From Candidatus Thorarchaeota archaeon (GTDB taxonomy: Archaea > Asgardarchaeota > Thorarchaeia > Thorarchaeales > Thorarchaeaceae), in the NCBI GenBank assembly GCA_016839605.1, contig JAEOTX010000098.1:1-14806 (forward strand): DNA of 14,806 nucleotides, read 5' to 3'. The notes below the pieces were generated by a model that saw only the letters and a list, made by a program, of their open reading frames with translations, did no database searches and was not told where the DNA came from. This document shows, one piece after another, positions 1 to 14,806 of the stretch (within the stretch, counting starts at the first letter, position 1; every line of letters begins with the position of its first letter). The position numbers were made by a program, and so were the translations under genes.

Positions 1-1347
1 CCAGAGTATAATGTACAATCCTATGACTGTGATTATCAAGTCAAATGCAGCCTCAACCTTTGTGCGGTTTCCAAACACATCTGTACGTCCTCTCGATTTT
101 ACCAAGTAATACCGTGTTCCAAAATAGGCTGTTGCTAATGCTACTGAAACTACTGTGGAGAACGACGCGGTTATCATAATGATTGACCATTGTGTGTACC
201 AAAAGCTATTGGGGATTCCAATATTAGCAAGAATAAGAATAGTGAACCCACCTAAGATGATTCCAATGAAGGTAGATGCTATACCACCAATGGTTCTTAG
301 AGCCGTCCTCTTTGTTTGATTCAGCAGATCACGCCTTGCATCTGGAGAGAGCGCTTGTGTTTCTGCAGAATGGCCATCTGGAATCCTAGCGGCCTCCCAC
401 CAGAGATCCTGCGCTCTAATAACAGTCTGATAGAGAATGAGTGTGCTGTAGCCCAGTGTATACCAAACAAGGAATGGATTCACGGTGGTTGAAGACCAAC
501 CCCAAGGATAGGTCCCCCATGCCATCACTGCATTAAGCAGTAAAAGGAGCACAACATTCACGACATATTCTCTTCTGATGAATGAAACTGGGTCCGAATT
601 TCCAATCCTTCGGACTGTGTATGCAAGGTGCAGAACTACGAATAGTATCGTTGGAACCGTAAAAAACATTACAAATGGAACGAAGCTGGAGCCGCCTAGT
701 ACTACATATGCAAATATAGTCAATAATGTAAGACCAATGTCTACTAGGACCTTGGTACTATAAACCTCAAGTGCAAGATTCTCTGGGAACGTGACCAGCT
801 TCTGAAGACTGGACCAGTTTGAAAACGTCGCATTTCTTAGCTGTAATGCTCTAATTCTAGATTTTAGCAGGAGAATTGCAAAAACACTTGCTACAACTCC
901 AAGCTGTATTACTGGTGCAAAGATGACTGCTGTTCCAATCCACCAATACACAAGAGGAGTGATCACAGTCCAGCTAATGACAAGCCAAAGAACAGCAATT
1001 ACGATGAATTTGAAGAATGTCGCCCTATAGCTGGCAGGAGACAGGTCTCTTCGCTGTTGTTGTATATCTTCAGCAACTTGCTGTTGCATACGATGCACTC
1101 CTATGACACTATCTGTCGAATCTGAAACAGATAGAGAATATTCCTTAGCAACCTCTGATGGGGCTCCAAACCGTGCAACCACTTTCTTTGCTGATGCAGT
1201 GGTCAATGTGCCATCTGAGAGATCCTCAGCCATCTCGATCATGTACCCACGGAGCTCTGTAATGACTTCGTCAGCCATGGACTCAGGCAGGTGTTCCCTC
1301 ACATGGCCCAAATACGCATCGATAGTCGTGAATGGATTCTCGCTCAC
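1..1347 (-). CDS. HAAS-domain (DUF1700-like) polytopic membrane protein, PadR partner; 3' end runs off the window
   Basis: Not in the ORF track. I read an uninterrupted minus-strand frame from GTG at 1347 to base 1 (449 codons, no stop). The start overlaps the PadR stop (GTGA). The N-terminus, MSENPFTTIDAYLGHVREHLPESMADEVITELRGYMIEMAEDLSDGTLTTASAKKVVARFGAPSEVAKEY, has the I..YL..V...LP...EL...FG.P.E.A..Y HAAS pattern, and many hydrophobic helices follow. Confidence 0.85.
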   Translation of the reverse strand, partial: MSENPFTTIDAYLGHVREHLPESMADEVITELRGYMIEMAEDLSDGTLTTASAKKVVARFGAPSEVAKEYSLSVSDSTDSVIGVHRMQQQVAEDIQQQRRDLSPASYRATFFKFIVIAVLWLVISWTVITPLVYWWIGTAVIFAPVIQLGVVASVFAILLLKSRIRALQLRNATFSNWSSLQKLVTFPENLALEVYSTKVLVDIGLTLLTIFAYVVLGGSSFVPFVMFFTVPTILFVVLHLAYTVRRIGNSDPVSFIRREYVVNVVLLLLLNAVMAWGTYPWGWSSTTVNPFLVWYTLGYSTLILYQTVIRAQDLWWEAARIPDGHSAETQALSPDARRDLLNQTKRTALRTIGGIASTFIGIILGGFTILILANIGIPNSFWYTQWSIIMITASFSTVVSVALATAYFGTRYYLVKSRGRTDVFGNRTKVEAAFDLIITVIGLYIILW

Positions 1348-1721
1348 TCAAGACCAGCCTCCTGCACTAACTGCATGATTTGATCATTCAGGCTTCTCCA
1401 TGCCTTGACCATCTGCCGCAGAATCATTCTACCATCTCTTGTGACGTAGTAGAGTCGCCGTCTCTTGCCTGAGGCATCTGACCATTTGCCCTCAAGAATC
1501 CCTCTTGCTTCTAGTCTGCGAAGAAGGGGGTACGTGGTGCTAGGTTCGACCTGAAGTGCGTCATACTCCTCCTGCCCAAGCTTCTTCATGATGTCATAGC
1601 CATAGGACTCACCATCTAGGATGATTGTGAGAATGGCTAGGGATAGAGCACCGCGTCTAATCTGCACGGACCATTTCTCGTACTCCATTTCTGGGTTTCC
1701 GACTGCTGTATCTTCTGACAT
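1344..1721 (-). CDS. PadR-family winged-helix transcriptional regulator
   Basis: Motifs Q.RRG.L.L.IL..L...ESYGYDI, T.YPLLRRLE..G.L...W and RRLYYVT.DG are PadR signatures. I placed the start at ATG 1721 (MSEDT...), preceded by GGAGGT, rather than the ORF-track start at 1775. Confidence 0.93.
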   Translation of the reverse strand: MSEDTAVGNPEMEYEKWSVQIRRGALSLAILTIILDGESYGYDIMKKLGQEEYDALQVEPSTTYPLLRRLEARGILEGKWSDASGKRRRLYYVTRDGRMILRQMVKAWRSLNDQIMQLVQEAGLE

Positions 1722-2995: not shown

Positions 2996-3080
2996 AGTCG
3001 TTCCCCCTTACTATATGTCGCAAAACCACTTGACTCTAACTATCAGATCGAATTTGACAAAGATATGAGTGTCAGTCAGT

Positions 3081-3148
3081 CGTTGTGGGAGATGTGTGCT
3101 GCGCGAGCGCGTGACAGGCCCGCAAGCTGGCGCATTCTCCTTTTTCTG
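3081..3148 (+). repeat. Intergenic hairpin repeat, copy 1 (complete)
   Basis: cgttgtgggagatgtgtgctgcgcgagcgcgtgacaggcccgcaagctggcgcattctcctttttctg. Confidence 0.95.
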
Positions 3149-3315
3149 CACCTACATAACTGCGATTGTTGGTGCAGCGTTGCGCTCGATTGTTCAGCTT
3201 GTCTTGTTGCTATGGAAGGTCCCAGATGCATGATTGCTTATCATAACTTGATGCTTTCGGAATAATTCCTTGCTGCGTGATTCATTACTGACTGATTCAG
3301 TAGTCAGAGAGAAAA

Positions 3316-3789
3316 TCACCAGGGCGTCTGTGGGTCAGAATATGGCCATTTCCACATCATTACGATAGCAAAGATAACCATGAAGGGAGTTGGAGCTGTT
3401 ATTGAAGGACTCCAAAAACCAATGCCAGTAAGTATTGAAGCTACAATCCACATAGGCAATTCTGTCACAAATCCAACCAATACAGTCAAGGTGCGTGTGC
3501 TTCTGTTTTCGTAGTAGCGGAGTATCTGATAGACAAAGATTAGTCGCGGAGCAGTCATTGGAAGTGTCGACAACCAAAGACCAAGACTATAATCTATGAC
3601 CACCCGGTGCGCTTCAAACTCAATCCACCATGACATGGCACGAATTGACAGGTTAGATGAAGTCAGCGTCAGGGTGACGATAATTGGGGCTAGTACTGCA
3701 ATGATTCCTGCAATCAAAGATATTAGTTTCGCGTCAACAGGGCTTCCTGTCCTTTGTTCTTCGGCAGCATCTGACCCTTTCATCTTCAC
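3316..3789 (-). CDS. 4-TM membrane protein, 'RYY' paralogue family
   Basis: 157 aa. The motifs RLIFVYQILRYYENRSTRTLTVLVG..ELP, PTP and C-terminal PW are shared with other genes in the window. Confidence 0.85.
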   Translation of the reverse strand: MKMKGSDAAEEQRTGSPVDAKLISLIAGIIAVLAPIIVTLTLTSSNLSIRAMSWWIEFEAHRVVIDYSLGLWLSTLPMTAPRLIFVYQILRYYENRSTRTLTVLVGFVTELPMWIVASILTGIGFWSPSITAPTPFMVIFAIVMMWKWPYSDPQTPW

Positions 3790-3892
3790 TACAACCCTGT
3801 TTCCTTTTTTAGCGGGGAGGAACAGAGGCTAATGCAAGTGCAGCACCATTGATATGTAATTCTTCCTATAATCATCTTAGGAAAGAGTTGGG

Positions 3893-4885
3893 ATGGATGT
3901 CATGATCAAGAGGCCCTCTTTTCAAGACGGAATTGTTAGCCTTCTTGTCATAGTGACAACTATCGCAACGCCAATGGCATTCATAGAACTTGGTGTCGTG
4001 ACCGCTGATAGAATCTATAGCTTGGCTGGATGGACTTTCGTATTTGGGTGCGTCCAGAGCCATTCAGGGGTCCTTATCCTGACATGGCCGTATCATGATT
4101 GGGGATTCTCTTCGTTCTTGACTCTAGTAGGAATTTGGATATTAGTTGCATTGTTCTTGTTTGCCGTTGTCCTTTTTGTAAACCGGTTCAAGATATCAAT
4201 TGTGGGCAGCATACTCACTCTAGTTTTGCAGGCGTATGCACCACTTCGTCTACTCGCTGGATATCCAGCAATTTTTGTAATGCCTTTTCCAATCCCATCT
4301 ATTGTTGCTCTCATCGGTCTTCTTGTTCTTAGACAGAATTTACCTTTCAGAAGATGGCGTCTAAGGAGAGGAGCGCGAATAAGAGAAGAAGATGATGAAG
4401 AACAAGCAAAAGAGAAACCGCGCCTAGTTGTACGGAGACTTTTCACCCGACAGTGCATGAAAAAGAGAGTCCTAGTCATTTTCTTTCTGGCGTACTATAT
4501 TTGGCTTCTGTGGTCAGCTTATTCCATGAGGGGCTGGTGGTGGGAGCCAGAAACGGGTTTGATGTGGTCAAGTGGTGGTCCAGGAATGTTCTTTCCATTT
4601 CCCCTCCTTCCAGGCATTGCAGCAATCATCACATATGCTAGTCCTTTCGATCAAGTCTTTTACCTACTGTTCATGCATGGTGGAATCTGGGCATTTTGGG
4701 TTGGTATTGGACTTCTGTATATTATCTCTCCATACAAACTCAATCCAAGCTATCTATCAAGTGGTAGAGCGGAGGATGATGAGAGTGAAAATATCTCAAT
4801 CTCTCGCACCTATGTTGTGTACTCACAGATGAGAGAATTACTGGTGAATCGCTTCAGGCGGCGCAATAGACCCAAGAATACTTAG
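3893..4885 (+). CDS. Hypothetical multi-pass membrane protein, apparently two fused membrane modules
   Basis: 330 aa. An N-terminal hydrophobic module ends in PFPIP+TM, then comes a charged linker (RRWRLRR...EEDDEEQ). A second module starts at the in-frame ATG 4457 (MKKRVLVIFF). Confidence 0.8.
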   Translation: MDVMIKRPSFQDGIVSLLVIVTTIATPMAFIELGVVTADRIYSLAGWTFVFGCVQSHSGVLILTWPYHDWGFSSFLTLVGIWILVALFLFAVVLFVNRFKISIVGSILTLVLQAYAPLRLLAGYPAIFVMPFPIPSIVALIGLLVLRQNLPFRRWRLRRGARIREEDDEEQAKEKPRLVVRRLFTRQCMKKRVLVIFFLAYYIWLLWSAYSMRGWWWEPETGLMWSSGGPGMFFPFPLLPGIAAIITYASPFDQVFYLLFMHGGIWAFWVGIGLLYIISPYKLNPSYLSSGRAEDDESENISISRTYVVYSQMRELLVNRFRRRNRPKNT

Positions 4886-4908
4886 CTCACTCTGGTTTCA
4901 CAAAAGAT

Positions 4909-4970
4909 AGAAACATGCGCTGCGCGAGCGCGTGACAGGCCCACAAGCTGCCACATTTTCCTCTTTCTGA
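4909..4970 (+). repeat. Intergenic hairpin repeat, copy 2 (left arm degenerate)
   Basis: agaaacatgcgctgcgcgagcgcgtgacaggcccacaagctgccacattttcctctttctga. Confidence 0.93.
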
Positions 4971-5058
4971 CTTCTCATTCCGCTTATATACTGCTTCCAC
5001 AAGTACTGTCATTAGTCAGAATGTCTTAGATTGTTATGCTTTCTAGACCAGCAGTTTC

Positions 5059-5087
5059 TGAAGGTAGGGCCGCAAAGCCCTCCTTCA
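5059..5087. terminator. Stem-loop between convergent genes, possible terminator or processing hairpin
   Basis: TGAAGG-T-AGGGC / loop CGCAAA / GCCCT-CCTTCA forms an 11-bp stem with one bulge, located between the stops at 4885 (+) and 5160 (-). Confidence 0.4.
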
Positions 5088-5159
5088 AACTTCTATCTCT
5101 GCTAAAGAAGAACCTGCTTGAAATATCGGATTCTGTAAGATGTGAGCGCAGGATTTGGT

Positions 5160-5849
5160 TTATTCTTTTCTGAGTACTGCCAGCACGATTAGAATTACTA
5201 CAGTGCCGGCCATGACCATTCCTACAATTCCTACTGGTGAATCAAGTGGGAATGGCAAAGTAACGCCTTCAACCAGTGAAATCCTGCGCAGGTCAACAAT
5301 TCCAATCTCTGTCCAGGTGATTCTTGAGTATGATGTATGAAGGACTCCCGTTGTCCTTACGTAGATTTCAGCGAGTGTATCTGTTCCTGACCTCCAAAAA
5401 ATAGTGTAATTGTAGCCGATGAGATACGGTGTGGAAATAATATCCTGAGTCATATTGTAATCAGTCGTATTTGTAGCCCTACTCTGCCAGATACCGACAA
5501 TAAGGCTCCAGTTACCAACTGGAAGTACGTCCCAACTAGAAGACCCCTCGATTTCGGTTCCATTTTCATAGAACCGCGATGCCCCAACTAAGCCCGAAAG
5601 GTTTCTCATTGCATTGATATCATCTGGGATGCTTGGAAGACTATCGATTATAACGTAGAAATCCTTCTCTCTAGGACTGGTTTCATTTTGATTTGGCATT
5701 GTAAACTCTGCGAAATCGTGATAGTCAAATCTACTCCCGGTTGTGACACCCCAATGCAGACCCTGATTGTTTGCAGCACTCACTGGGGTGACAACAAGAC
5801 ATAGAACAAATAGTATAGCCATCAATTGAAAGGATAGAATCCTACACAT
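5160..5849 (-). CDS. Secreted, C-terminally anchored surface (glyco)protein
   Basis: Signal peptide (…VVTPVSA-A), then LHWGVTTGSRFDY. Multiple N-x-S/T sequons (NET, NLS, NGT, NWS, NTT, NMT, NYT). Ends in a C-terminal TM followed by RKE. Confidence 0.88.
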   Translation of the reverse strand: MCRILSFQLMAILFVLCLVVTPVSAANNQGLHWGVTTGSRFDYHDFAEFTMPNQNETSPREKDFYVIIDSLPSIPDDINAMRNLSGLVGASRFYENGTEIEGSSSWDVLPVGNWSLIVGIWQSRATNTTDYNMTQDIISTPYLIGYNYTIFWRSGTDTLAEIYVRTTGVLHTSYSRITWTEIGIVDLRRISLVEGVTLPFPLDSPVGIVGMVMAGTVVILIVLAVLRKE

Positions 5850-5953
5850 ATGTAGAACCTCAGCTTACGAATCTGTCAATGGTCCTCTACCTAGATATTG
5901 ATAGGTCTTTGAAATTATAAACATTCGTTCCCAATTCACTTGTCCCAACACGA

Positions 5954-6001
5954 GCTGCGCGAGCGTGTGACAGGCCCGTAAGCTAACACATTTTCCTTTT
6001 C
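5954..6001 (+). repeat. Intergenic hairpin repeat, copy 3 (5' part degenerate or missing)
   Basis: gctgcgcgagcgtgtgacaggcccgtaagctaacacattttccttttc. Confidence 0.9.
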
Positions 6002-6095
6002 AGGTTTCCAGCATTAGTACAGCCATTCTTCTAAGAAAGGCTTCAAGTACAAGCTATTGAATCAAGATGATCCTCAATCTATGGGGTTGCGAAGA

Positions 6096-6839
6096 ATGGA
6101 ATCAAATCCTGAACTTCCAACGCTCCTTACAACAGTACCATTTAGCTATTTGATATTCAGTGTCTTCTATACTCTGTGCATCGTTCATGCTGTTCTCTTT
6201 GGGGTCACTTTCGGATTTATTCCTGAATTCTCACGTTCGGTAATACTCAGTCTCATTTCTATGCCGTCTTTGGTAACCAGACTCTTCATTGTTCTCTTGC
6301 CACTCTTCTTGGTTATAGCACTGAACACTGTCCACTTCAAACGAATTCTATCGAAGCGACTAGAAGAACCAAGACCCAGTGCTATTCGGATTCTTCTTGG
6401 TGTGCTTACGGCAGTCCCCCTTCTCCTCCTAACAGTCTATGCTAACTACTACCTCCTGGGATCCATCATCGGGTGGCCATTGATAGTATTTGTCCAGAGC
6501 ATTATAGTAGCTGGTTCTTTGATGACATATGTTCTCATTGTTACCGCCATCATGACTGAGAATACTAAGGCGTATCTTAATCGCTCCCTTCGAAATCCCG
6601 AACTGTGGGTAATGGCACTTGTTCTCGCCGCTCTGCTCTTTCTCCCCACTTTAGCTTTCATCAACCCAATTCAGAAGGGATTCTTCTATTCCTTCGCTTC
6701 GAGTGACCTTTTCCTCTATGCACTCCCGGATCTATTTTGGAGAGCATTCTTATTGGGTATTCTTATCCCGCTCCTGCCCTTTTCTTTGCAATACATTGAC
6801 CGGATTTCTGTTAATCAACCCAACATCTCCACACAGTGA
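6096..6839 (+). CDS. Hypothetical multi-pass (~6 TM) membrane protein
   Basis: Strongly hydrophobic ORF filling the interval between repeat copies 3 and 4. The start is likely ATG 6096 (MESNP); the ORF track gives TTG 6057. Confidence 0.82.
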   Translation: MESNPELPTLLTTVPFSYLIFSVFYTLCIVHAVLFGVTFGFIPEFSRSVILSLISMPSLVTRLFIVLLPLFLVIALNTVHFKRILSKRLEEPRPSAIRILLGVLTAVPLLLLTVYANYYLLGSIIGWPLIVFVQSIIVAGSLMTYVLIVTAIMTENTKAYLNRSLRNPELWVMALVLAALLFLPTLAFINPIQKGFFYSFASSDLFLYALPDLFWRAFLLGILIPLLPFSLQYIDRISVNQPNISTQ

Positions 6840-6912
6840 TATCTGAGAACTAATCGTCCTTTGAGTCCCACCATCACTCTTGATTTTCCTCTGTGGTTAC
6901 TTGATTGTTTAC

Positions 6913-6940
6913 CGTTGCAGGAGATGTGGGCTGCGCGAGC
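6913..6940 (+). repeat. Intergenic hairpin repeat, copy 4 (5' half only)
   Basis: cgttgcaggagatgtgggctgcgcgagc matches consensus positions 1-28, then similarity ends abruptly. Confidence 0.85.
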
Positions 6941-7044
6941 TATCAAAGAATCTAGTTCATCAGATGCTACATGGTACAAGCATTGGACTGACCCAAACAA
7001 CATATCGCTAGCCCCATAGAAACAACAAATGGAGTGATTCAATA

Positions 7045-7500
7045 TTGGTGAACTCCGAGAAACTGGCCATCAAAATAGGTCTTGCAATTTCTATCATGTC
7101 CATACTGTCACCCTTTGTTGTTATCATTGCCTTTGGACTATTTGGAGAAATTTCGCTGTCATTCTGGACTGTGCTATTCCACATTTCAATCTCTCCCCTT
7201 GACCAAAGCATTGCACTGCATAATTTCTTCCTTGTGCTTCAATACTTGCCATTTGTATCCATTCGCTTTGCCTTCGCATACCTAATGATGAGATATTATG
7301 AGGGAAAAACCACAGGGGGCATGCTCGTCCTTTCTGGATTGGTAGGAGAGCTGATTCCTGCTTTGCTCATTTTATCGCTCCCACCAGTAGTGGTACTTAA
7401 TCAGCTTGTTTTTCCCCTTCCTTTGCATCTCCTGGCTGGTTTTATTATAGTCACTATGAAACCTCCAGCTGTTATCACTAGTCCTTGGGTTGATCTTTAG
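7045..7500 (+). CDS. 4-TM membrane protein, 'RYY' paralogue family
   Basis: 151 aa with RFAFAYLMMRYYEGKTT…G..GEL.P, FPLP and C-terminal SPW. RBS GGAGTGA lies at 7031-7037. Confidence 0.85.
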   Translation: MVNSEKLAIKIGLAISIMSILSPFVVIIAFGLFGEISLSFWTVLFHISISPLDQSIALHNFFLVLQYLPFVSIRFAFAYLMMRYYEGKTTGGMLVLSGLVGELIPALLILSLPPVVVLNQLVFPLPLHLLAGFIIVTMKPPAVITSPWVDL

Positions 7501-7602
7501 GCTAAAGGTTCGAAATTCTCAACTATTTCGACAGTGAGTTCATCCCTTTGTTATGATATGGTAGTAGCAATCAACATAGGCAATGGGTTTTTGAAATGCT
7601 TT

Positions 7603-7869
7603 CTACAAGGAACGAATTTGCATTATGAGGTCTAAGACTTGAACTGCAGTCAAAATAACGAATGTTTCCAGAGTGAAGGGAAAACACACCCAATACTGTA
7701 ATGATAAGGACGCACTTAGAAGCATGGATGACACGGGCAAATAGAAGCCGAAACATGCAATGCCCACATAAACCCGGTTTCTTTTGCTCTTAATCGCAAT
7801 TTGGCTAATAATGTAGGGGAGGGCTAGGATGAGAATGGTAGGCGAATCGATGATAATTAGGATACTCAA
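7603..7869 (-). CDS. Small hydrophobic (~3 TM) hypothetical protein
   Basis: 88-aa hydrophobic ORF with a TTG start preceded by GAGGA. Convergent with 7045-7500; could be a gene remnant. Confidence 0.5.
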   Translation of the reverse strand: MSILIIIDSPTILILALPYIISQIAIKSKRNRVYVGIACFGFYLPVSSMLLSASLSLQYWVCFPFTLETFVILTAVQVLDLIMQIRSL

Positions 7870-7948
7870 ATATCAATCCTCATCTGAACATACACATTAT
7901 TCCTCCAAATGGCTTCCGAAACATAGAATTGTATATCCAAGTTTGTGT

Positions 7949-8018
7949 CATTGTGGGAGATGTGCGCTGAGCGAGCGCGTGGCAGGCCCACAAGCTGCCA
8001 CATTCTCCTTTTCTCTGA
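7949..8018 (+). repeat. Intergenic hairpin repeat, copy 5 (complete)
   Basis: cattgtgggagatgtgcgctgagcgagcgcgtggcaggcccacaagctgccacattctccttttctctga. Confidence 0.95.
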
Positions 8019-8057
8019 TTTCTTGAGCAATTCTGTTTTGGAAATGCACTCCCAGGT

Positions 8058-8237
8058 TTATCTATCAGGATATTTGGCTTGAGTAGCTGCAACCAATATG
8101 AGAATAGTCCCTGTGGCAACATATGCAAGAGCCATAAGGTAGCCATGTAGTGGTAGAAAAACCAATGAAAACCCGAAGAATAGAACGCCCAAGATTACTA
8201 GCAATACAGTTATGCAATCAGGCCGCCATTGAGTCAT
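8058..8237 (-). CDS. 59-aa 2-TM microprotein (below ORF-track cutoff)
   Basis: Manual translation from ATG 8237 to TAA 8058: MTQWRPDCITVLLVILGVLFFGFSLVFLPLHGYLMALAYVATGTILILVAATQAKYPDR*. It sits cleanly between repeat copies 5 and 6. Confidence 0.65.
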   Translation of the reverse strand: MTQWRPDCITVLLVILGVLFFGFSLVFLPLHGYLMALAYVATGTILILVAATQAKYPDR

Positions 8238-8372
8238 CTCGAGTCCTATCTAATATTGCTGGATATTTGCTTATCATCTTTTGCTGGCATATGTATGAGA
8301 TCAAAGGCCATAGACAATTCTCTTGGCACTTAGAAAATGCTTCAAGCAATGAAAAGCGTACCACAAAATCTT

Positions 8373-8410
8373 CGTGATAGACCCGCAAGCTGGCACATTT
8401 TTCCTTCTGA
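8373..8410 (+). repeat. Intergenic hairpin repeat, copy 6 (3' half only)
   Basis: cgtgatagacccgcaagctggcacatttttccttctga matches consensus from position 30 to the end. Confidence 0.85.
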
Positions 8411-8418
8411 GAGAGTTG

Positions 8419-9936
8419 TCATTCTATGTCGCGTATGACAAGAGATATGGTGACCGAAGCACGCAGAGTGCAGGAAGTCTCGTTGGAATAAGGCGCAGTG
8501 AAACGATAGTACCAGATGTAGGTTGTTGACCCAGACTTTACATCACCAGATTGTCCCGAGGAACTCGCCCCCTCATTGATGTACATTCCATTCGTTGGGA
8601 GACCATTTCTTTCATTGTCATCCATGTCAAGAAAGTCGTCTAGAGTCATCTCTGAAATTCCATATCCTAATCGCAATGGCGCAGGGCAAACTCCCCAACT
8701 TAGAATTTCAGCTTGTATTGTAACAAGGTTCTCTCTCCCTTGAGGAGCTGCGGGTAAGTAAAACCCTCCTGCTCTCCATTCCCCAAGAGCATGGTCATTG
8801 TCGCTTGTAGGAGTCACAAAAAGAACATGTTCCTCTGGTGGAGGACCCTCCAAGAATGGCAATCTCAGTGTCATCACAGAAGCCAAAATCAGGATTATGA
8901 TCACAACTGTTACAAGGGGCGTTTTGAACGGAAGAAGGCCAGAAAACATTCGTTGGAGAAGTGTCTTTGTTTCAGAGGGTATGGACTCATCTGTATCAGG
9001 AGTGAAGACTGTGGAAACCTCAGTTGAGGAACGCCTCCTTCTCCACATGACGCAGACAGCAATTATGGCTGCAGCTCCTGAGAGCATTAGTGCCCCTTGA
9101 ATAGCCAGAGCTGCCGCAACTGAATATGCAGGACCAAGTTCAATATTCGTGTCTGTGAGTACTAGACGGTAGTCTGCGTAAGAGATGTTGACAAGGCCTA
9201 GGAGTATTCTGTCCGTAATGCTTCCAGAGGCACGGACCAAAAGCCCGCTGTCCGTATCATAGCTTCGTGAATGCCGGACTTCTCCATCCACAGAGTCATA
9301 ATACTTACAGTCGTATTCCTGACATATTTGCCGCTCCCCTTTTACAGTGCAAATTGAGCCTGCGCCTCCAGGTGGTGCTTGCTGTGCAGTGACGTTACGA
9401 TCTAGAGATGAGATGACAAATCCCTCGGAGGACCAGGCGTTTCTAGAAACGAGATTCATTATTCCTGTCTGACCTGCAAGAGACCCATTTCTTATAGTGC
9501 AGACTCCAGTGCTTGGAGAGTAGCTCAACTGGAAAACGCCATCAAAGAAGTGACCAAGGATCGAGGGTCCCTGATATGTGACTCCCATAATGAATACGTC
9601 AGAGGTTTCCTCCTCAACCACATCAAATGTAATTATGATCTCGTGTGTAAGGGCGGGGGTTGACAATACCTCCCGAGATAATATTCCATCTCTGGTGACC
9701 ACTATGCCGTTGGCAAGAGTGTAGTTCCATAACACAACAATCTGAGTACTCAGAGTATACTCAAGGAAGCTGCCCACTTCTAGCGTGGAGAAACTGACCG
9801 TTGGCGAAGATACATCTGAAGTGGCATGTCCAAAGTTCACAAGAGTGGCTGAAAGTGTCAGTAGTAGCATGAGTGCGGTTAATGTGCGCCTCGAGCCGGA
9901 CAAGAATAACCCTTCAGGAGCAGTATGAGTGTGCAT
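8419..9936 (-). CDS. Membrane-anchored surface protein with two extracellular domains
   Basis: 505 aa: signal peptide, ectodomain (…YDTDSGLLV…), TM followed by WRRRR, linker, second TM, second ectodomain. Sequons are present. The true start may be TTG 9903. The stop lies 9 bp from repeat copy 6. Confidence 0.88.
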   Translation of the reverse strand: MHTHTAPEGLFLSGSRRTLTALMLLLTLSATLVNFGHATSDVSSPTVSFSTLEVGSFLEYTLSTQIVVLWNYTLANGIVVTRDGILSREVLSTPALTHEIIITFDVVEEETSDVFIMGVTYQGPSILGHFFDGVFQLSYSPSTGVCTIRNGSLAGQTGIMNLVSRNAWSSEGFVISSLDRNVTAQQAPPGGAGSICTVKGERQICQEYDCKYYDSVDGEVRHSRSYDTDSGLLVRASGSITDRILLGLVNISYADYRLVLTDTNIELGPAYSVAAALAIQGALMLSGAAAIIAVCVMWRRRRSSTEVSTVFTPDTDESIPSETKTLLQRMFSGLLPFKTPLVTVVIIILILASVMTLRLPFLEGPPPEEHVLFVTPTSDNDHALGEWRAGGFYLPAAPQGRENLVTIQAEILSWGVCPAPLRLGYGISEMTLDDFLDMDDNERNGLPTNGMYINEGASSSGQSGDVKSGSTTYIWYYRFTAPYSNETSCTLRASVTISLVIRDIE

Positions 9937-9981
9937 GGATATATGATTTGGCTACATTCGCTTGACAGATGAATGGCTTTC

Positions 9982-10049
9982 CGTTGTAGGAGATGTGCGC
10001 TGCGCGAGCGCGTGACAGGCCCGCAAGCTGGCACATTTTCATTTTCTGA
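9982..10049 (+). repeat. Intergenic hairpin repeat, copy 7 (complete, near consensus)
   Basis: cgttgtaggagatgtgcgctgcgcgagcgcgtgacaggcccgcaagctggcacattttcattttctga. Confidence 0.97.
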
Positions 10050-10129
10050 TCGATTTCCGAGTTGATATTCCTTTGATGCTCTTCCTGCGTTAGTCTTCAT
10101 GTGGCTCATTCCATTTCCGTGCTCATTCA

Positions 10130-11077
10130 TCAGAATAGTGTGAGTCTGAGAGTCATCTCAAAATCATCAACAATGAAGACCTTCGAAGCAGACAGCGTCA
10201 GTTCGTCAATCACAGTATCTGTTACAATCTCAGTATCGTAACTGCAGTAGATAGAGACCCACACTCCGTTCAATGAGAGGGGTATGTCATACAGATACAT
10301 TGTCCGATGTTCAGTGTTGGGATTGATTGTTTCCCCTGCGCCAATCAGACGATTCGCGGAATCCTCAGCATCGAAACGGGTCTCGTAAAAGGAAACATGA
10401 AGGTCGAACTCGTAATCCTTTGGTTCAATCCATATGTCGAGCTGATGTGTAATAGTACCATCGAATGAACCATTGCCAGTCGGACGTGAGAAGAGAAAGC
10501 CAGAGGCCAGTACGACTGCAATCACCACAAGTACGTTCACTTCGGATAGGGTGATGAATCTGAATCTATTCCTAATACTTGTCGCTTCAAATGGATGTTC
10601 CACGAAGGCTTCCCCATTCTCTATGCTGTGTGGTGCAAACCACATGAAGACCATTGCTGCAAAGAGCATCAGGGGAGTTGGAACAGTCAGACCCGGATCC
10701 CAGCGCGTTATTGGAAGGGGGATGCTTTGATAGTACGGCAGTATGAGTAACTCAGCAAGGACTCCCAGCAGGACAGTCAACCTTCGTGAGCTTTTGCCCT
10801 GGTAATATCGAACCATCTGATAGACAAACACGATCCTCCAGACGGTTAATACTAAGGGAGCTATGATTAATAGATACCAATTCAGGTCAGAGAAGCCGTA
10901 GGGAACATAATATGTGTACGTCATGGCCATTATTGTCACACGCCCTGACACAGGTTCTATGTCGACGAGGAATGGTGCAAAGAGAGCAAGCCCTCCCACT
11001 ATGACACACACTACTCTGAGGTCCACCGGAATCTTAGGGGCGCCTGAATGTGTGCTCCCATTTGTCATCTTAATCAC
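10130..11077 (-). CDS. 'RYY' family 4-TM module fused to an extra TM plus beta-rich ectodomain
   Basis: The first ~150 aa align by eye with 3316-3789 (VD..V...I.G..A..AP; I.AM; RIVFVYQMVRYYQGKSSRRLTVLLG.LAEL; T.PTP.M.FA.V.MW..P). The C-terminal ~135 aa are unrelated. Confidence 0.88.
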   Translation of the reverse strand: MIKMTNGSTHSGAPKIPVDLRVVCVIVGGLALFAPFLVDIEPVSGRVTIMAMTYTYYVPYGFSDLNWYLLIIAPLVLTVWRIVFVYQMVRYYQGKSSRRLTVLLGVLAELLILPYYQSIPLPITRWDPGLTVPTPLMLFAAMVFMWFAPHSIENGEAFVEHPFEATSIRNRFRFITLSEVNVLVVIAVVLASGFLFSRPTGNGSFDGTITHQLDIWIEPKDYEFDLHVSFYETRFDAEDSANRLIGAGETINPNTEHRTMYLYDIPLSLNGVWVSIYCSYDTEIVTDTVIDELTLSASKVFIVDDFEMTLRLTLF

Positions 11078-11386
11078 TCTTCATCTTTGTACTTCTTAGC
11101 ATCCTTTAATAGACTGAGTCATAGAACTCCCATCCACACGAATTGCAGCGATACTTCTTCCTCATGCCTGTCGGTGTTGTTTCAAGACCAAGCAGATGCG
11201 CCCTAGCCCCACATCTTGGGCATGGAGAATATTCCTCAAGAGTCAATCAGCCCACTTCTCATATCTTCCAGTGGCATGAATGCCTATGTGTCTTGCGAGT
11301 GCTCGGTCGACATGAATACGATTCTTGCGAAACGCACAAGTGCGATGAACATGGATGACTATACAACAACTGGTGAGGGAGCATAT

Positions 11387-12076
11387 ATGGATGTGCGGTT
11401 CCACCGATCAAGCAAAGCAGCCGCACTGACCCTTGTGATTATACTCATCACAGCTCTTGTTTCAACATGGCTGAATAATCCCAAACCACCAGTATCATGG
11501 GAAAGGCAGAGCGTCGTATCGTATTCAGACGGCTTTTTTGATATATATGTCCCGCCGAGTTTCAATATCACCTATGACGCGGAGGTAAATGACCTTCAGA
11601 ACACAACAAGGATCTATGTGGAAATCAGTTCAGAACTGACGCTGACCCATGGACTGCTCAGCTTTGAGATGGTGTCTGGCTATCACACTCCACATTCAAA
11701 GTATAGTATAACAGATTACCGAGAGGCCACGCTGACTTCAAGCACCTCGCGCGTGAACTGGAATACAACCGCTCACGAGCCCCTGAGCCCTTATTGGTTA
11801 CATTTCCACGGTCTGAATGAAACCAACGAACAAGACCAGATTTTTCCTACTGAGTATACATTGCAGATGATCTGGAACTCATCATTGACCTTAGTTGAAG
11901 AGCGGGACAATGATACGATGTTCATCGCGAACTTGAGCATCTGGATTCATTTCGGTGAATCTCAATACCAAATAGACCCAGCTCTGGTTAGTTTACTACT
12001 CATTGGGGAAGGATCGATTGGAATCGTTGCGATAGTAGGGTTCTACAGGTTTGACAAACCGGTCGTGATAGACTAG
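11387..12076 (+). CDS. Surface glycoprotein-like protein with N- and C-terminal TM helices
   Basis: Start placed at ATG 11387 (MDVRF) behind GGTGAGGGAG; the ORF track extends to 11216. Sequons include NIT, NTT, NET, NSS, NDT and NLS. Confidence 0.85.
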   Translation: MDVRFHRSSKAAALTLVIILITALVSTWLNNPKPPVSWERQSVVSYSDGFFDIYVPPSFNITYDAEVNDLQNTTRIYVEISSELTLTHGLLSFEMVSGYHTPHSKYSITDYREATLTSSTSRVNWNTTAHEPLSPYWLHFHGLNETNEQDQIFPTEYTLQMIWNSSLTLVEERDNDTMFIANLSIWIHFGESQYQIDPALVSLLLIGEGSIGIVAIVGFYRFDKPVVID

Positions 12077-12132
12077 GTCTGGAAATAGGTAAGGCTCGGT
12101 ATTGATTCAAGGGTTATGCAGTGAGAAGATGG

Positions 12133-12190
12133 TGCGGGAGATGCGCGAGCGCGTGACAAGCCCGCGAGCTGGCACATTTTCCTTTTCTGA
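12133..12190 (+). repeat. Intergenic hairpin repeat, copy 8 (7-nt internal deletion)
   Basis: tgcgggagatgcgcgagcgcgtgacaagcccgcgagctggcacattttccttttctga. GATGTGCGCTGCGCG is collapsed to GATGCGCG. Confidence 0.92.
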
Positions 12191-12228
12191 TTACAAACTC
12201 CTGAAACATCTTTTTCATTTTGAGTTAC

Positions 12229-12489
12229 TTAAATGACCCAATTGGGATCAGATCTTCTTCGTGCCCTTTCGAAGCTATAGTATAATGCAAAGACGATCAA
12301 CCCCCAAGTTGCATACAGCAACGAATGCTCTGGATACCAGAATGATGCAGAGCCCACGTATACAAGAAGTGGTCTCCAGAGTGCGATAGCAAAGAGAATT
12401 CCAGAAACGGCCTTCAAAAAGGTCCTGAAGATCCAAGTGTTGTATTTTGGACTATACCAAATCGATTTCATGAAGCACTCATCGAACAA
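12229..12489 (-). CDS. Small 2-TM hypothetical membrane protein
   Basis: 80-86 aa (start TTG 12489 or ATG 12471) with two hydrophobic helices and a basic tail. It fills the interval between copies 8 and 9. Confidence 0.7.
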   Translation of the reverse strand: MFDECFMKSIWYSPKYNTWIFRTFLKAVSGILFAIALWRPLLVYVGSASFWYPEHSLLYATWGLIVFALYYSFERARRRSDPNWVI

Positions 12490-12539
12490 TCAATGTTTCC
12501 TTTACCTATCATCTTTTCGATAGTTTGGACACTATCGTA

Positions 12540-12582
12540 GCGAGCACATGAAAGGCCCGCAAGCTGGCACATTTTTCATTTC
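12540..12582 (+). repeat. Intergenic hairpin repeat, copy 9 (5'-truncated, degenerate)
   Basis: gcgagcacatgaaaggcccgcaagctggcacatttttcatttc. Confidence 0.85.
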
Positions 12583-12669
12583 ACAGAAAATCTGCACCAT
12601 TGACATGTAATTCATCCCATAATCATCTTAGTAAAGATGCGGGATGGATGCCCAGCACATCCAAAAACA

Positions 12670-13320
12670 TCAATCCCACACTTTGTATATCTCGTCAAGA
12701 TCTTCCATGGTGATGAAGAGCTTTCCAACGCAGGACTCTTCGATTTCCTCCTCGATAAACCAAGACTCATCTCTATCTGGGTCTGTCCAGGGGGTGACCA
12801 GTTCTGGGGCGGGGATGCGGTACACAATAAATAGTCCTACTGCAATTTGAATTGGAATGGGCCCGAAATATGGGAGAAGACCTGTTCCAAGCGCCATAGC
12901 GGGATCGAACAGGAATCCGATTACTATCCAGATTATCCCCTGTAAGAACAGAGCAAAGATAGGTGCGATAAATGCAGCAATTGCCCATCTTAAGACGCTG
13001 TCCTTGCTAGTTCTGTCCTGATAGTACCTCACAACTTTCAAAGCAAAGATGACATTGCATATGCCGAGAGGAAACGTGGCCCAGAGGAGAGTAGGGTTGG
13101 AAACTACAGAGTTATGAAGCCCCCAACTCCCGGCACGGGGGCCTAACGCCCAGAGGAGAGAGTATATGAAATCCGGCTCTGGGTATACAAAAGGGTACCC
13201 AAGAACCCACCAACTAGGAAGAACACCATAAGGTGTCAATAGCGTGGAAACACCCATTATCGCAGCTATGACACCTGGACTCACTCCGTACAGGTCGCTG
13301 TAGATATCATCAGTAGTCAT
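12670..13320 (-). CDS. 4-TM membrane protein, 'RYY' paralogue family, acidic tail
   Basis: Start placed at ATG 13320 (MTTDD) behind GAGGGCGG; the ORF-track extension to 13518 merely reads through repeat copy 10. Motifs are TP after TM1, VIFALKVVRYYQDRTS, GPIPIQ and TPW. Confidence 0.85.
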   Translation of the reverse strand: MTTDDIYSDLYGVSPGVIAAIMGVSTLLTPYGVLPSWWVLGYPFVYPEPDFIYSLLWALGPRAGSWGLHNSVVSNPTLLWATFPLGICNVIFALKVVRYYQDRTSKDSVLRWAIAAFIAPIFALFLQGIIWIVIGFLFDPAMALGTGLLPYFGPIPIQIAVGLFIVYRIPAPELVTPWTDPDRDESWFIEEEIEESCVGKLFITMEDLDEIYKVWD

Positions 13321-13465
13321 AGCAGCCAAGCCGCCCTCAGTCCCAATGCAAGGAGGATATCTATGATAAGTCAATCGTTGAGATGAGAGTTGTACAAAAA
13401 GTGAGAGCTCATGACCGTTCATTTGGTTCTTGACAAATAGCAATAATCCCCTGTGATAGAGCTCT

Positions 13466-13530
13466 CGTTGTGGGAGATGTGCGCTGCGCGAGCGCGTGAC
13501 AGGCCCACAAGCTGCCACATTCTCCTTTTC
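13466..13530 (+). repeat. Intergenic hairpin repeat, copy 10 (complete)
   Basis: cgttgtgggagatgtgcgctgcgcgagcgcgtgacaggcccacaagctgccacattctccttttc. Confidence 0.97.
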
Positions 13531-13612
13531 ATAGAATGCTGACTATGAGCTTATGTGTTCACTCTTAGAAAAAGCTATTTTTACACTTAGAAGAAATCTT
13601 ACGAAACTTCTC

Positions 13613-14608
13613 TCAGGAGCTGTAGCGCCTCATCAAATTCAAAAAACCAGAGTCGTTTATCATTCCCAGGAATTTTTCATCTGATAGGACTCGTTGTGTG
13701 AAACTGCTGTCTGCACTGAATACCATTTCGAGAGCCTCCAGAGCTTCCCTCCTTCTTCCTACGTCTTCCAATGCACGAGCCATATTGTATAACGCTCCTG
13801 GATTTCCCGGATCAATTTCAAGTCCTTTCCGTATCTTCCAAATAGCTTCATCAGATCTTCTTGCTTTAATCAGTAGATCGCCATAGAAGAACCAGCCCCT
13901 TGCGTCCTCTGGTTTAATTTCAACACCCTTATCGAGATACTTGAATGCCTCCTCCTCCCTTCCTCTACCATGCAAAAGGGCACTTAGAGCAAGATGGGCA
14001 AAATAATCCTTTGGATCAATCTGAATTATACGCTCATAGATTTCAAGAGCTTCATCTGTTCTTCCCAATTGAGTAAGACAATAAGCCTTGTTCTGTAAAA
14101 CAGCAGGTTCCATTCGTCTTGTGCCTAAGACATCAGCCGATTCTTCAGCCACTTTGTCTAATTCAGGTGCCTTTCTAAGTGCAATATCCATTGCTCTTAT
14201 CGCATATTCGTACTCTTTATTCTGCATCAGCCTGTCTGCCAACTCCATGGCTTTTGGCACATCATCCAGAACTGATGCAACCATCATTGCTTTGATTTTC
14301 GCTGCATCTCTGTGATATGTGTCTATGTTCTGCAACGCAGCTGCCTTCTGAAAGGATACCAATGCTTCATCCATTCTTACAAGGTGTCTGTAGAGCATCC
14401 CCAGATGATACCAAACGTGCCAATTATCAGGAGCTTTCTGACTAGCCTTGACCAATTCTTTTTCAGCTTCTTCATACTTCTCCTTCTGGATGAGCTTGAC
14501 TCCGCGTTTAGCTTGCTTGTCGGATTTGCCCTCTTTCAGGAATTGCTCTTCTCCCTCTCTAGATAGTCTAATCATCTCATCAGTGATTCTCTCAAACTCT
14601 TCCGCCAT
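13613..14608 (-). CDS. Tetratricopeptide repeat (TPR) protein
   Basis: Repeated 34-aa TPR units, e.g. WYHLGMLYRHLVRMDEALVSFQKA, NKAYCLTQLGRTDEALEIYERIIQIDP, WFFYGDLLIKARRSDEAIWKIRKGLEIDP and LYNMARALEDVGRRREALEAL. The start is likely ATG 14608 (MAEEF); the ORF track gives 14752. Confidence 0.92.
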   Translation of the reverse strand: MAEEFERITDEMIRLSREGEEQFLKEGKSDKQAKRGVKLIQKEKYEEAEKELVKASQKAPDNWHVWYHLGMLYRHLVRMDEALVSFQKAAALQNIDTYHRDAAKIKAMMVASVLDDVPKAMELADRLMQNKEYEYAIRAMDIALRKAPELDKVAEESADVLGTRRMEPAVLQNKAYCLTQLGRTDEALEIYERIIQIDPKDYFAHLALSALLHGRGREEEAFKYLDKGVEIKPEDARGWFFYGDLLIKARRSDEAIWKIRKGLEIDPGNPGALYNMARALEDVGRRREALEALEMVFSADSSFTQRVLSDEKFLGMINDSGFLNLMRRYSS

Positions 14609-14771
14609 AGCTTGACCCTTTCCTACTAATGCCCTCAATAACTCTGCTTTCTTATCTCTCTTGTGAGAATCTTGAAACCAAAGGCAACAACACCGAACCA
14701 TCCTATCTGCATCTGCCAGACTCACTGCCCTAGGCCATAATCCTGAGTTCATAACTTTGTGATGAAAGGAA

Positions 14772-14806
14772 GGGAGATGTGCGCTGCGCGAGCGCGTGAC
14801 AGGCCC
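14772..14806 (+). repeat. Intergenic hairpin repeat, copy 11 (cut by window end)
   Basis: gggagatgtgcgctgcgcgagcgcgtgacaggccc is identical to consensus positions 7-41. Confidence 0.95.

Follow-up and report, generated by a model that had tools for sequence, protein, structure and literature searches.

An array of 5S rRNA gene fragments and surface-protein genes in a Thorarchaeota genome, probably left behind by a selfish homing nuclease

The 14,806-bp stretch of DNA analysed here (the window) is the entire contig C20 of genome G000, whose proteins cluster with Candidatus Thorarchaeota, and it carries an array of genes set between eleven co-oriented copies of a short repeat. Sequence comparison identifies this repeat as the 3' half (nt ~62-127) of the 5S rRNA gene, which Thorarchaeota have in a single copy. 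The array is probably the debris of a selfish cut-and-replace element aimed at the 5S gene, in which cleavage, as we infer it, led to nested homing that was followed by recombination. On this reading, which we consider the best, the array arose incidentally as the gene was replaced again and again, and it is no programmed platform of the integron kind. The reading draws on the identity and polarity of the repeat, the exchange of units between loci, a nuclease clade that stands beside complete foreign 5S genes, and resident 5S genes that are split.

The 3' half of the 5S rRNA gene as the repeat

The repeat sequence lies within matches of 59-67 bits to the Rfam profile RF00001 in 11 relatives, scored on the genes of these relatives with a cut-off of 38 bits. 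It is present in 20 of 24 genomes of the family, mostly as a single copy before a DUF1512 gene, where in relatives it forms the 3' half of a complete 5S rRNA gene. The G000 copy before DUF1512 (contig C122) is identical at 69 of 69 positions to nt 62-130 of the 5S gene of a congener, and unrelated DNA stands in place of its 5' half. An Rfam scan of the window gave no 5S match because the window holds halves only. Multi-copy arrays occur mainly in the genus of G000, and we caution that an array of short, seemingly 'novel' repeats in an Asgard genome can consist of rRNA halves that have escaped annotation.

The original prediction had described eleven copies, all on the plus strand and all between genes, which is borne out by the following list.

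3079-3145, plus strand: 5S rRNA 3' half, nt 64-130 including the T-rich terminator tail
4916-4962, plus strand: 5S 3' piece, nt 80-126; 41/41 identical to the nuclease-borne allele, 2 differences from the resident one
5954-5998, plus strand: 5S 3' piece, nt 83-127
6913-6940, plus strand: 5S piece, nt 66-93, 3' side lost
7945-8010, plus strand: 5S 3' half, nt 62-127
8373-8406, plus strand: 5S 3' piece, nt 95-127
9982-10043, plus strand: 5S 3' half, nt 66-127; hybrid of two alleles with an A-C mispair at 72/106
12133-12184, plus strand: 5S 3' piece, about nt 69-127, with a 5-bp internal deletion
12540-12581, plus strand: 5S 3' piece, nt 88-127, diverged
13465-13527, plus strand: 5S 3' half, nt 65-127; matches the 5S carried with the nuclease in G015 and L130 at 55/55 positions, 4 differences from the resident allele
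14772-14806, plus strand: 5S piece, nt 72-105, ending at the contig end

The sharing of one strand by all eleven has a p of about 0.001, and in a shuffled genome used as a control the best match to the repeat was no better than E 0.5. Our recount agrees with the prediction on the ten intervals, seven with one gene and three with two, and on the single genes, six of seven on the minus strand and five of these with a stop codon 9-88 bp from a copy. The predicted size of ~68 bp fits the near full-length copies at 3079, 7945, 9982 and 13465, but the rest measure 28-55 bp; they are mostly trimmed on the 5' side, the exceptions being 6913 (3' side) and 14772 (contig end). The predicted hairpin corresponds to helices IV/V and loop E of 5S rRNA, but as DNA it is stronger than shuffles solely at 7949 (z of -2.3, against about 0 for the other three full copies). 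A whole-genome search added six convincing copies on five contigs (two on C84 and one each on C122, C156, C125 and C39); the array is therefore not the sole site, although 11 of 17 copies still lie on C20.

In an alignment of 57 5S pieces, numbered by the nt of the full 5S gene, no piece begins before nt 58, 21 begin no later than nt 67, the 5' ends cluster at nt 62-66, and the 3' end plus T-rich tail is retained in 47. Several alleles are represented among the pieces, which show paired changes in helix IV (A-T vs G-C at 72/106, C-G vs T-A at 71/107) and also in helix I, and therefore the pieces were once working genes of different lineages; some of them are hybrids of alleles. Copies truncated at the 5' side with a fixed 3' end resemble retroposed RNA, and the repeat could be read as retroposed 5S pseudogenes or a 5S-derived miniature inverted-repeat transposable element (MITE) inserted between genes. 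However, the copies continue beyond the mature 3' end into terminator sequence, lie in a cluster with one shared orientation, and travel with downstream cargo, and neither reverse transcriptase (RT) nor Y1 nuclease gave a match in five genomes. Dispersal, occurrence in both orientations, and terminal repeats or an RT/HUH enzyme, as expected of MITEs, repetitive extragenic palindromes or retroposed RNA, were not found. Retroposition is largely refuted by the units, cargo included, that are common to several genomes, and we consider its probability close to negligible.

The gene-sized units with direct repeats, their shuffled order and the solo unit elsewhere (C156) recall an integron, and integrons are enriched in Asgard archaea (PMC9668308). 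A dedicated recombinase would then act on the 5S half as a folded single-stranded site, in the way that IntI acts on attC. On the other hand, the absence of attC boxes, already pointed out in the original prediction, holds for a strict attC pattern at every copy and anywhere in the window, the fold is no better than that of shuffles, 7/11 copies are truncated and many pieces break the stem. Furthermore, genes lie in both orientations or two per unit and there is no candidate enzyme, which leaves such a system very improbable.

Nucleases, spare 5S genes and a proposed homing cycle

Directly upstream of the intact 5S gene of G015 lies a large open reading frame (ORF), the family of which occurs in 52/86 genomes and is free-standing, outside any intron or intein, with a length of 600-1350 aa. 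Its conserved 380-aa end was modelled with a predicted local distance difference test (pLDDT) score of 90 as a two-motif LAGLIDADG fold, for which the best structural matches in PDB were I-Tsp061I (E 6e-6), intein endonucleases and I-DmoI. The first acidic motif is invariant in the family, and sequence searches of PHROGs and PDB with the nuclease gave no match. Tested as a prediction, the four closest homologues of the G015 protein (75, 63, 61 and 48%) all adjoin a 5S gene. Together with the G015, G003 and G075 proteins they form one clade with 100/95 support, in which 5S adjacency is 7/7, against 1/41 for the remaining family members, kin among them not being independent; the adjoining 5S gene is complete and of a foreign allele. 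The G003 and G075 members were found independently of the selection by similarity. That the nuclease family as a whole tracks the arrays was considered and rejected, the link being solely via the 5S clade.

At locus L130, the resident 5S gene survives as two parts, nt 1-54 and nt ~61-123. They enclose cargo, the nuclease and a full-length foreign 5S gene, which has a promoter of its own and is expanded by 30 nt at nt 54-56. A split 5S gene is present in G088 too. The order at L129 is nuclease, spare 5S, 30 bp, 3' half, cargo and another piece, and at L131 it is spare 5S, cargo, half, cargo, half and DUF1512, while G012 retains a stub of the nuclease gene before an expanded 5S. Five nuclease-linked spare 5S genes bear a 29-32-nt insert at nt 54-56. 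A filled/empty pair is provided by G006, with a 1.03-kb nitrilase insert and a new 3' half, and G004 and G008, with a plain 5S; a regenerated target plus a displaced 3' fragment is present in G006 (compared with G004/G008), G015 and L131.

The 5S genes with a 29-32-nt hairpin insert lie at L130:4907-5056, L129:1993-2144, L131:4064-4212, L036:7894-8045, L023:11257-11408 and L062:7204-7353, and the expanded 5S is the only full 5S found in G003, G012 and G045. The sequence that G003 and G012 share upstream of the repeat, at one point read as an attP arm, is in fact this expansion segment. A 5S survey lists one archaeal insertion site (104.1-105) and includes no Thorarchaeota, and nt 54-56 is not among its sites for archaea (PMC7812874). 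At L042:4388-4507, a 5S gene with a resident-type promoter and 3' end is foreign in its central part (nt ~16-71), as if the proposed cut site had been patched by gene conversion.

We hypothesize that the nuclease would cut the resident 5S gene near nt 55-62 and that repair would insert the nuclease, a promoter, a spare 5S and cargo, pushing the old 3' half downstream. The spare, altered or interrupted at the cut region, would probably be resistant, until a later nuclease variant could cut it in turn. Nested rounds would stack co-oriented units of 3' half plus cargo downstream, with neither a nuclease nor a 5' half among them, a layout that matches the window. Homologous recombination in the 29-bp invariant core of the halves could then add, delete, invert and move units. 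Among the destinations would be a second hot spot, flanked by the deoxyhypusine synthase gene on one side and rpl10e on the other. No integrase would be needed.

A more far-reaching interpretation, for which we see the chances as evenly divided, is a natural cleave-and-rescue drive on the only 5S gene, with a resistant spare often made via a ~30-nt expansion segment, and with the halves serving as anchors of integrase-free surface-protein cassettes. If true, it would explain the origin and spread of rRNA expansion segments. The proposed origin of the array is in itself a route to integron-like arrays without an integrase, in an archaeal group related to the ancestors of eukaryotes. A homing nuclease on an intron-less single-copy rRNA gene, with whole-gene swaps between lineages, would make 5S a poor lineage marker here; it would also suggest, in a form open to testing, why rRNA alleles turn over and why expansion segments arise, the latter as an escape from cutting.

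Members of the nuclease family also often end beside the 3' end of a tRNA gene. On contig C207 of G000 (L050:3218-4862), a 1.5-kb insert in the 3' end of tRNA-Trp has a LAGLIDADG gene as its only gene, a displaced 16-nt copy of the end and a new 3' end of different sequence, and empty sites exist in three relatives. A recurrent module of a HerA/VirB4-like ATPase, an acidic LAGLIDADG protein and a small partner gene, often ending at a tRNA and without an integrase, was seen at L051:2021-8470 (C125, behind a 5S piece) and at L101, L102, L105-L108, L110, L112 and L114-L116.

The original prediction that an enzyme is encoded outside the window is one with which we agree, the best candidate being a homing endonuclease and not a recombinase. 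No tyrosine integrase (PF00589), resolvase, RT, Y1 HUH or IS110 match was found in G000, which is 80% complete. Tandem islands would have a tyrosine or serine integrase acting in trans on 5S as attB, circles carrying a replacement 3' half, and the LAGLIDADG protein as a passenger. Their geometry is that of tRNA islands with displaced 3' fragments (PMC4383910), the clustering of the 5' ends at nt 62-66 and the clean 3'-half replacement with a native 5' half in G006 would fit, and a tyrosine recombinase is present in 30/86 family genomes. Nevertheless, no integrase adjoins a 5S piece in the family or lies within the units, and none was found in G000, G015, G002, G005, G009 and G011. The split genes of L130 and G088 are rescued by a whole spare gene and not by Campbell regeneration, a passenger would not track 5S as a clade, and none of the viral contigs searched for the repeat core carries it. 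Such islands are therefore a quite improbable source of the array. A conserved integrase arm site upstream of the copies was also sought and none is evident, the upstream sequence in common belonging to shared cargo. IS110 was found only in G012, where it has taken the place of most of the nuclease gene before the spare 5S; its transposase (L023:9379-10194) has the half on the DUF1512 side at one end and the flipped spare 5S at the other.

Exchange of units and the cargo of the window

Homology between the DNA of different loci begins at a piece and ends just before the next piece. The unit at 5956-6883 of the window also stands alone on C156 (87%), the piece plus gene at 4916-5942 is found in G005 and also 30 bp behind the spare 5S of L129 (80% over 1030 bp), and 8374-8505 is homologous to C84. 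Comparison of cassette order among relatives, which the original prediction had called for, revealed flanks exchanged at the repeat: across four genomes, one and the same upstream flank is followed by any of three downstream flanks, and the converse also occurs. The proposal of a variable gene array built at a capture site thus stands as regards the variable array with direct repeats, but the repeat is the 5S 3' half and not a purpose-built site. Inverted pieces lie just upstream of the 5S promoter in several genomes, the intact 5S gene is flipped in G012, G015 and G075, and some cargo is inverted relative to its piece at other loci.

The hybrid pieces and flank swaps show crossovers within the piece, arrays persist in genomes without the nuclease and other short modules are shuffled in the same arrays, all of which would agree with recombination alone, i.e., incoming Thorarchaeota DNA anchored at 5S, with its other end joined illegitimately and the nuclease riding in one lineage. 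However, recombination alone does not explain why no piece extends beyond nt 58 on the upstream side, nor does it account for the split genes, the insert at the break point and a divergent (48-75%) nuclease clade that always adjoins 5S, and we regard it as unlikely.

Several observations weigh against cut-and-replace homing at 5S. Orphan 5' halves are rare (2 cases), and neither an intact 5S gene nor a 5' half was found in the G000 assembly (3.08 Mb, 80% complete, 4.6% contamination). G000 also has no 5S-clade nuclease, its four homologues belonging to other clades, with the intact 5S region likewise unassembled. The arrays of G005, G009 and G011 are accompanied by an undisturbed 5S locus and no nuclease match, and under homing they would therefore have been inherited or imported. 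A bacterial insert at 57-58 clashes with uL5 (PMC7812874), and some of the expanded spares may therefore be non-functional. It is the rpl10e-side locus, and not the 5S locus, that the window resembles, 4/7 of the 5S-clade nucleases were picked by similarity to the G015 protein, and allele-flank linkage across pieces offers too few pairs for a test.

The window probably lies between deoxyhypusine synthase and rpl10e, away from the 5S locus, as its gene content suggests. The PadR-HAAS pair, the 157-aa gene and the TPR gene are syntenic with G005, G011, L119 and L126, and no longer contigs carrying the end genes of the window were found. Contig gaps coinciding with units (8399-9880 in X1; 6917-7904 and 2471-2964 in X4) were set aside as evidence, since 67-75% of the records were read and no contig joins across; contig joints whose sides measure 30-34 letters are artefacts of the repeat. 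The presence in G000 of two deoxyhypusine synthase loci whose neighbours are similar (C14:1148-2158 and C39:7223-8140) suggests some strain mixing in the bin.

As the original prediction had it for surface-protein genes, most cargo encodes membrane or surface proteins. The genes and other features are as follows.

1-1721, minus strand: PadR regulator and HAAS membrane protein, found within 5S-piece arrays in G011 and L119
2215-2727, plus strand: 170-aa membrane protein, homologue between 5S pieces at the 5S locus of L044
3316-3789, minus strand: cargo, 157-aa membrane protein, homologue beside rpl10e arrays in relatives
3843-3899, plus strand: 57-bp promoter-like module, second copy at 12594-12650
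3893-4885, plus strand: cargo, 330-aa membrane protein, no Pfam family
5160-5849, minus strand: cargo, 229-aa putative surface protein
6057-6839, plus strand: cargo, 260-aa membrane protein
7045-7500, plus strand: cargo, 151-aa membrane protein
7603-7869, minus strand: cargo, 88-aa membrane protein, paralogue on C84
8058-8237, minus strand: cargo, 59-aa hydrophobic ORF
8419-9870, minus strand: cargo, membrane-anchored protein of about 480-505 aa, paralogue on C57
10130-11068, minus strand: cargo, 312-aa membrane protein, C-terminal part common to C57
11216-12076, plus strand: cargo, 286-aa membrane-anchored protein
12229-12489, minus strand: cargo, 86-aa membrane ORF
12670-13323, minus strand: cargo, 217-aa membrane protein, C84 paralogue oriented opposite to its 5S piece
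13613-14608, minus strand: cargo, TPR protein, 50% identical homologue directly behind the intact 5S in G016

The occurrence of PadR-HAAS within the 5S-piece arrays of relatives indicates that the variable region reaches to the left of 3081. A ~170-bp element upstream of PadR (1913-2095) has further copies on C39 and C14 and several in G009 and G011, and may mediate inversion of PadR-HAAS. The 57-bp module fronts different cargo genes, usually right behind a 5S piece, and occurs also in three relatives (L022:4116, L025:7587 and L026:4571). A 16-bp motif from the rpl10e upstream region (14728-14743) recurs in arrays at L022:2365-2472 and 6339 and at L035:370, and in G015 the promoter and first eight codons of rpl10e are present as an orphan copy, a hint of a second cut-and-replace target. 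A second small array (C84:8300-13900, L053) and a solo piece-plus-gene unit (C156:11195-12164, L054) hold 78-87% paralogues of window cargo, which are either true duplicates or a second strain in the bin. The TnpB-bearing contig C57 (3629-5855) has three cargo paralogues in common with the window (genes at 2215, 8419 and 10130), and therefore hot spots at stable-RNA genes exchange cargo.

Relation to known systems

We classify the system not as an integron, but as a variant of homing-endonuclease gene replacement, to which the present loci add 5S as a target, rescue by a whole gene and an insert at the break point. Literature searches that took in Asgard mobile-element papers, and in which most subscription journals were lacking, yielded no description of these arrays. 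The archaeal rRNA-intron LAGLIDADG enzymes I-DmoI and I-Tsp061I, which cut 23S/16S rRNA genes, are the closest solved folds to the family found here. They reside in a spliced intron that restores the RNA, whereas the present family is free-standing, much larger, and restores via a second gene. Engineered cleave-and-rescue drives share the logic of a cut combined with a resistant copy, but they are synthetic and in animals.

Integrons and clusters of attC sites lacking integrons (CALINs), including archaeal ones (PMC9668308), likewise hold small accessory genes in variable order, rich in membrane or secreted products, between direct repeats, whereas here there are no attC boxes and no IntI, the repeat is an rRNA fragment and cargo lies in both orientations. 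The tRNA/tmRNA islands, tandem arrays and additive flexible islands (PMC4383910, PMC4119200) resemble our loci in their entry at a stable-RNA gene, the displaced 3' fragments at unit ends and the stacking, but here the target is 5S, the units are gene-sized without an integrase and split genes are accompanied by a full spare. Truncated 5S copies and hairpins inserted in 5S have been surveyed in prokaryotes (PMC7812874), yet that survey makes no link to nucleases or cargo arrays. The phage nuclease SegB is also free-standing and tied to stable-RNA genes and repeat expansion (PMC13096335), but it comes from a phage, belongs to another family and amplifies whole segments. The free-standing nuclease ORFs of fungal mitochondria (Allomyces macrogynus atp6, Ophiostoma rps3; PMC4019555) enter an essential gene, supply an altered replacement and displace the old 3' end without an integrase, as we propose here. 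The Thorarchaeota case differs in its target, which is an rRNA gene of an archaeon, in its rescue, for which a whole gene complete with promoter and inserted hairpin is often supplied, and in its many rounds, which would have led to an array of cargo.

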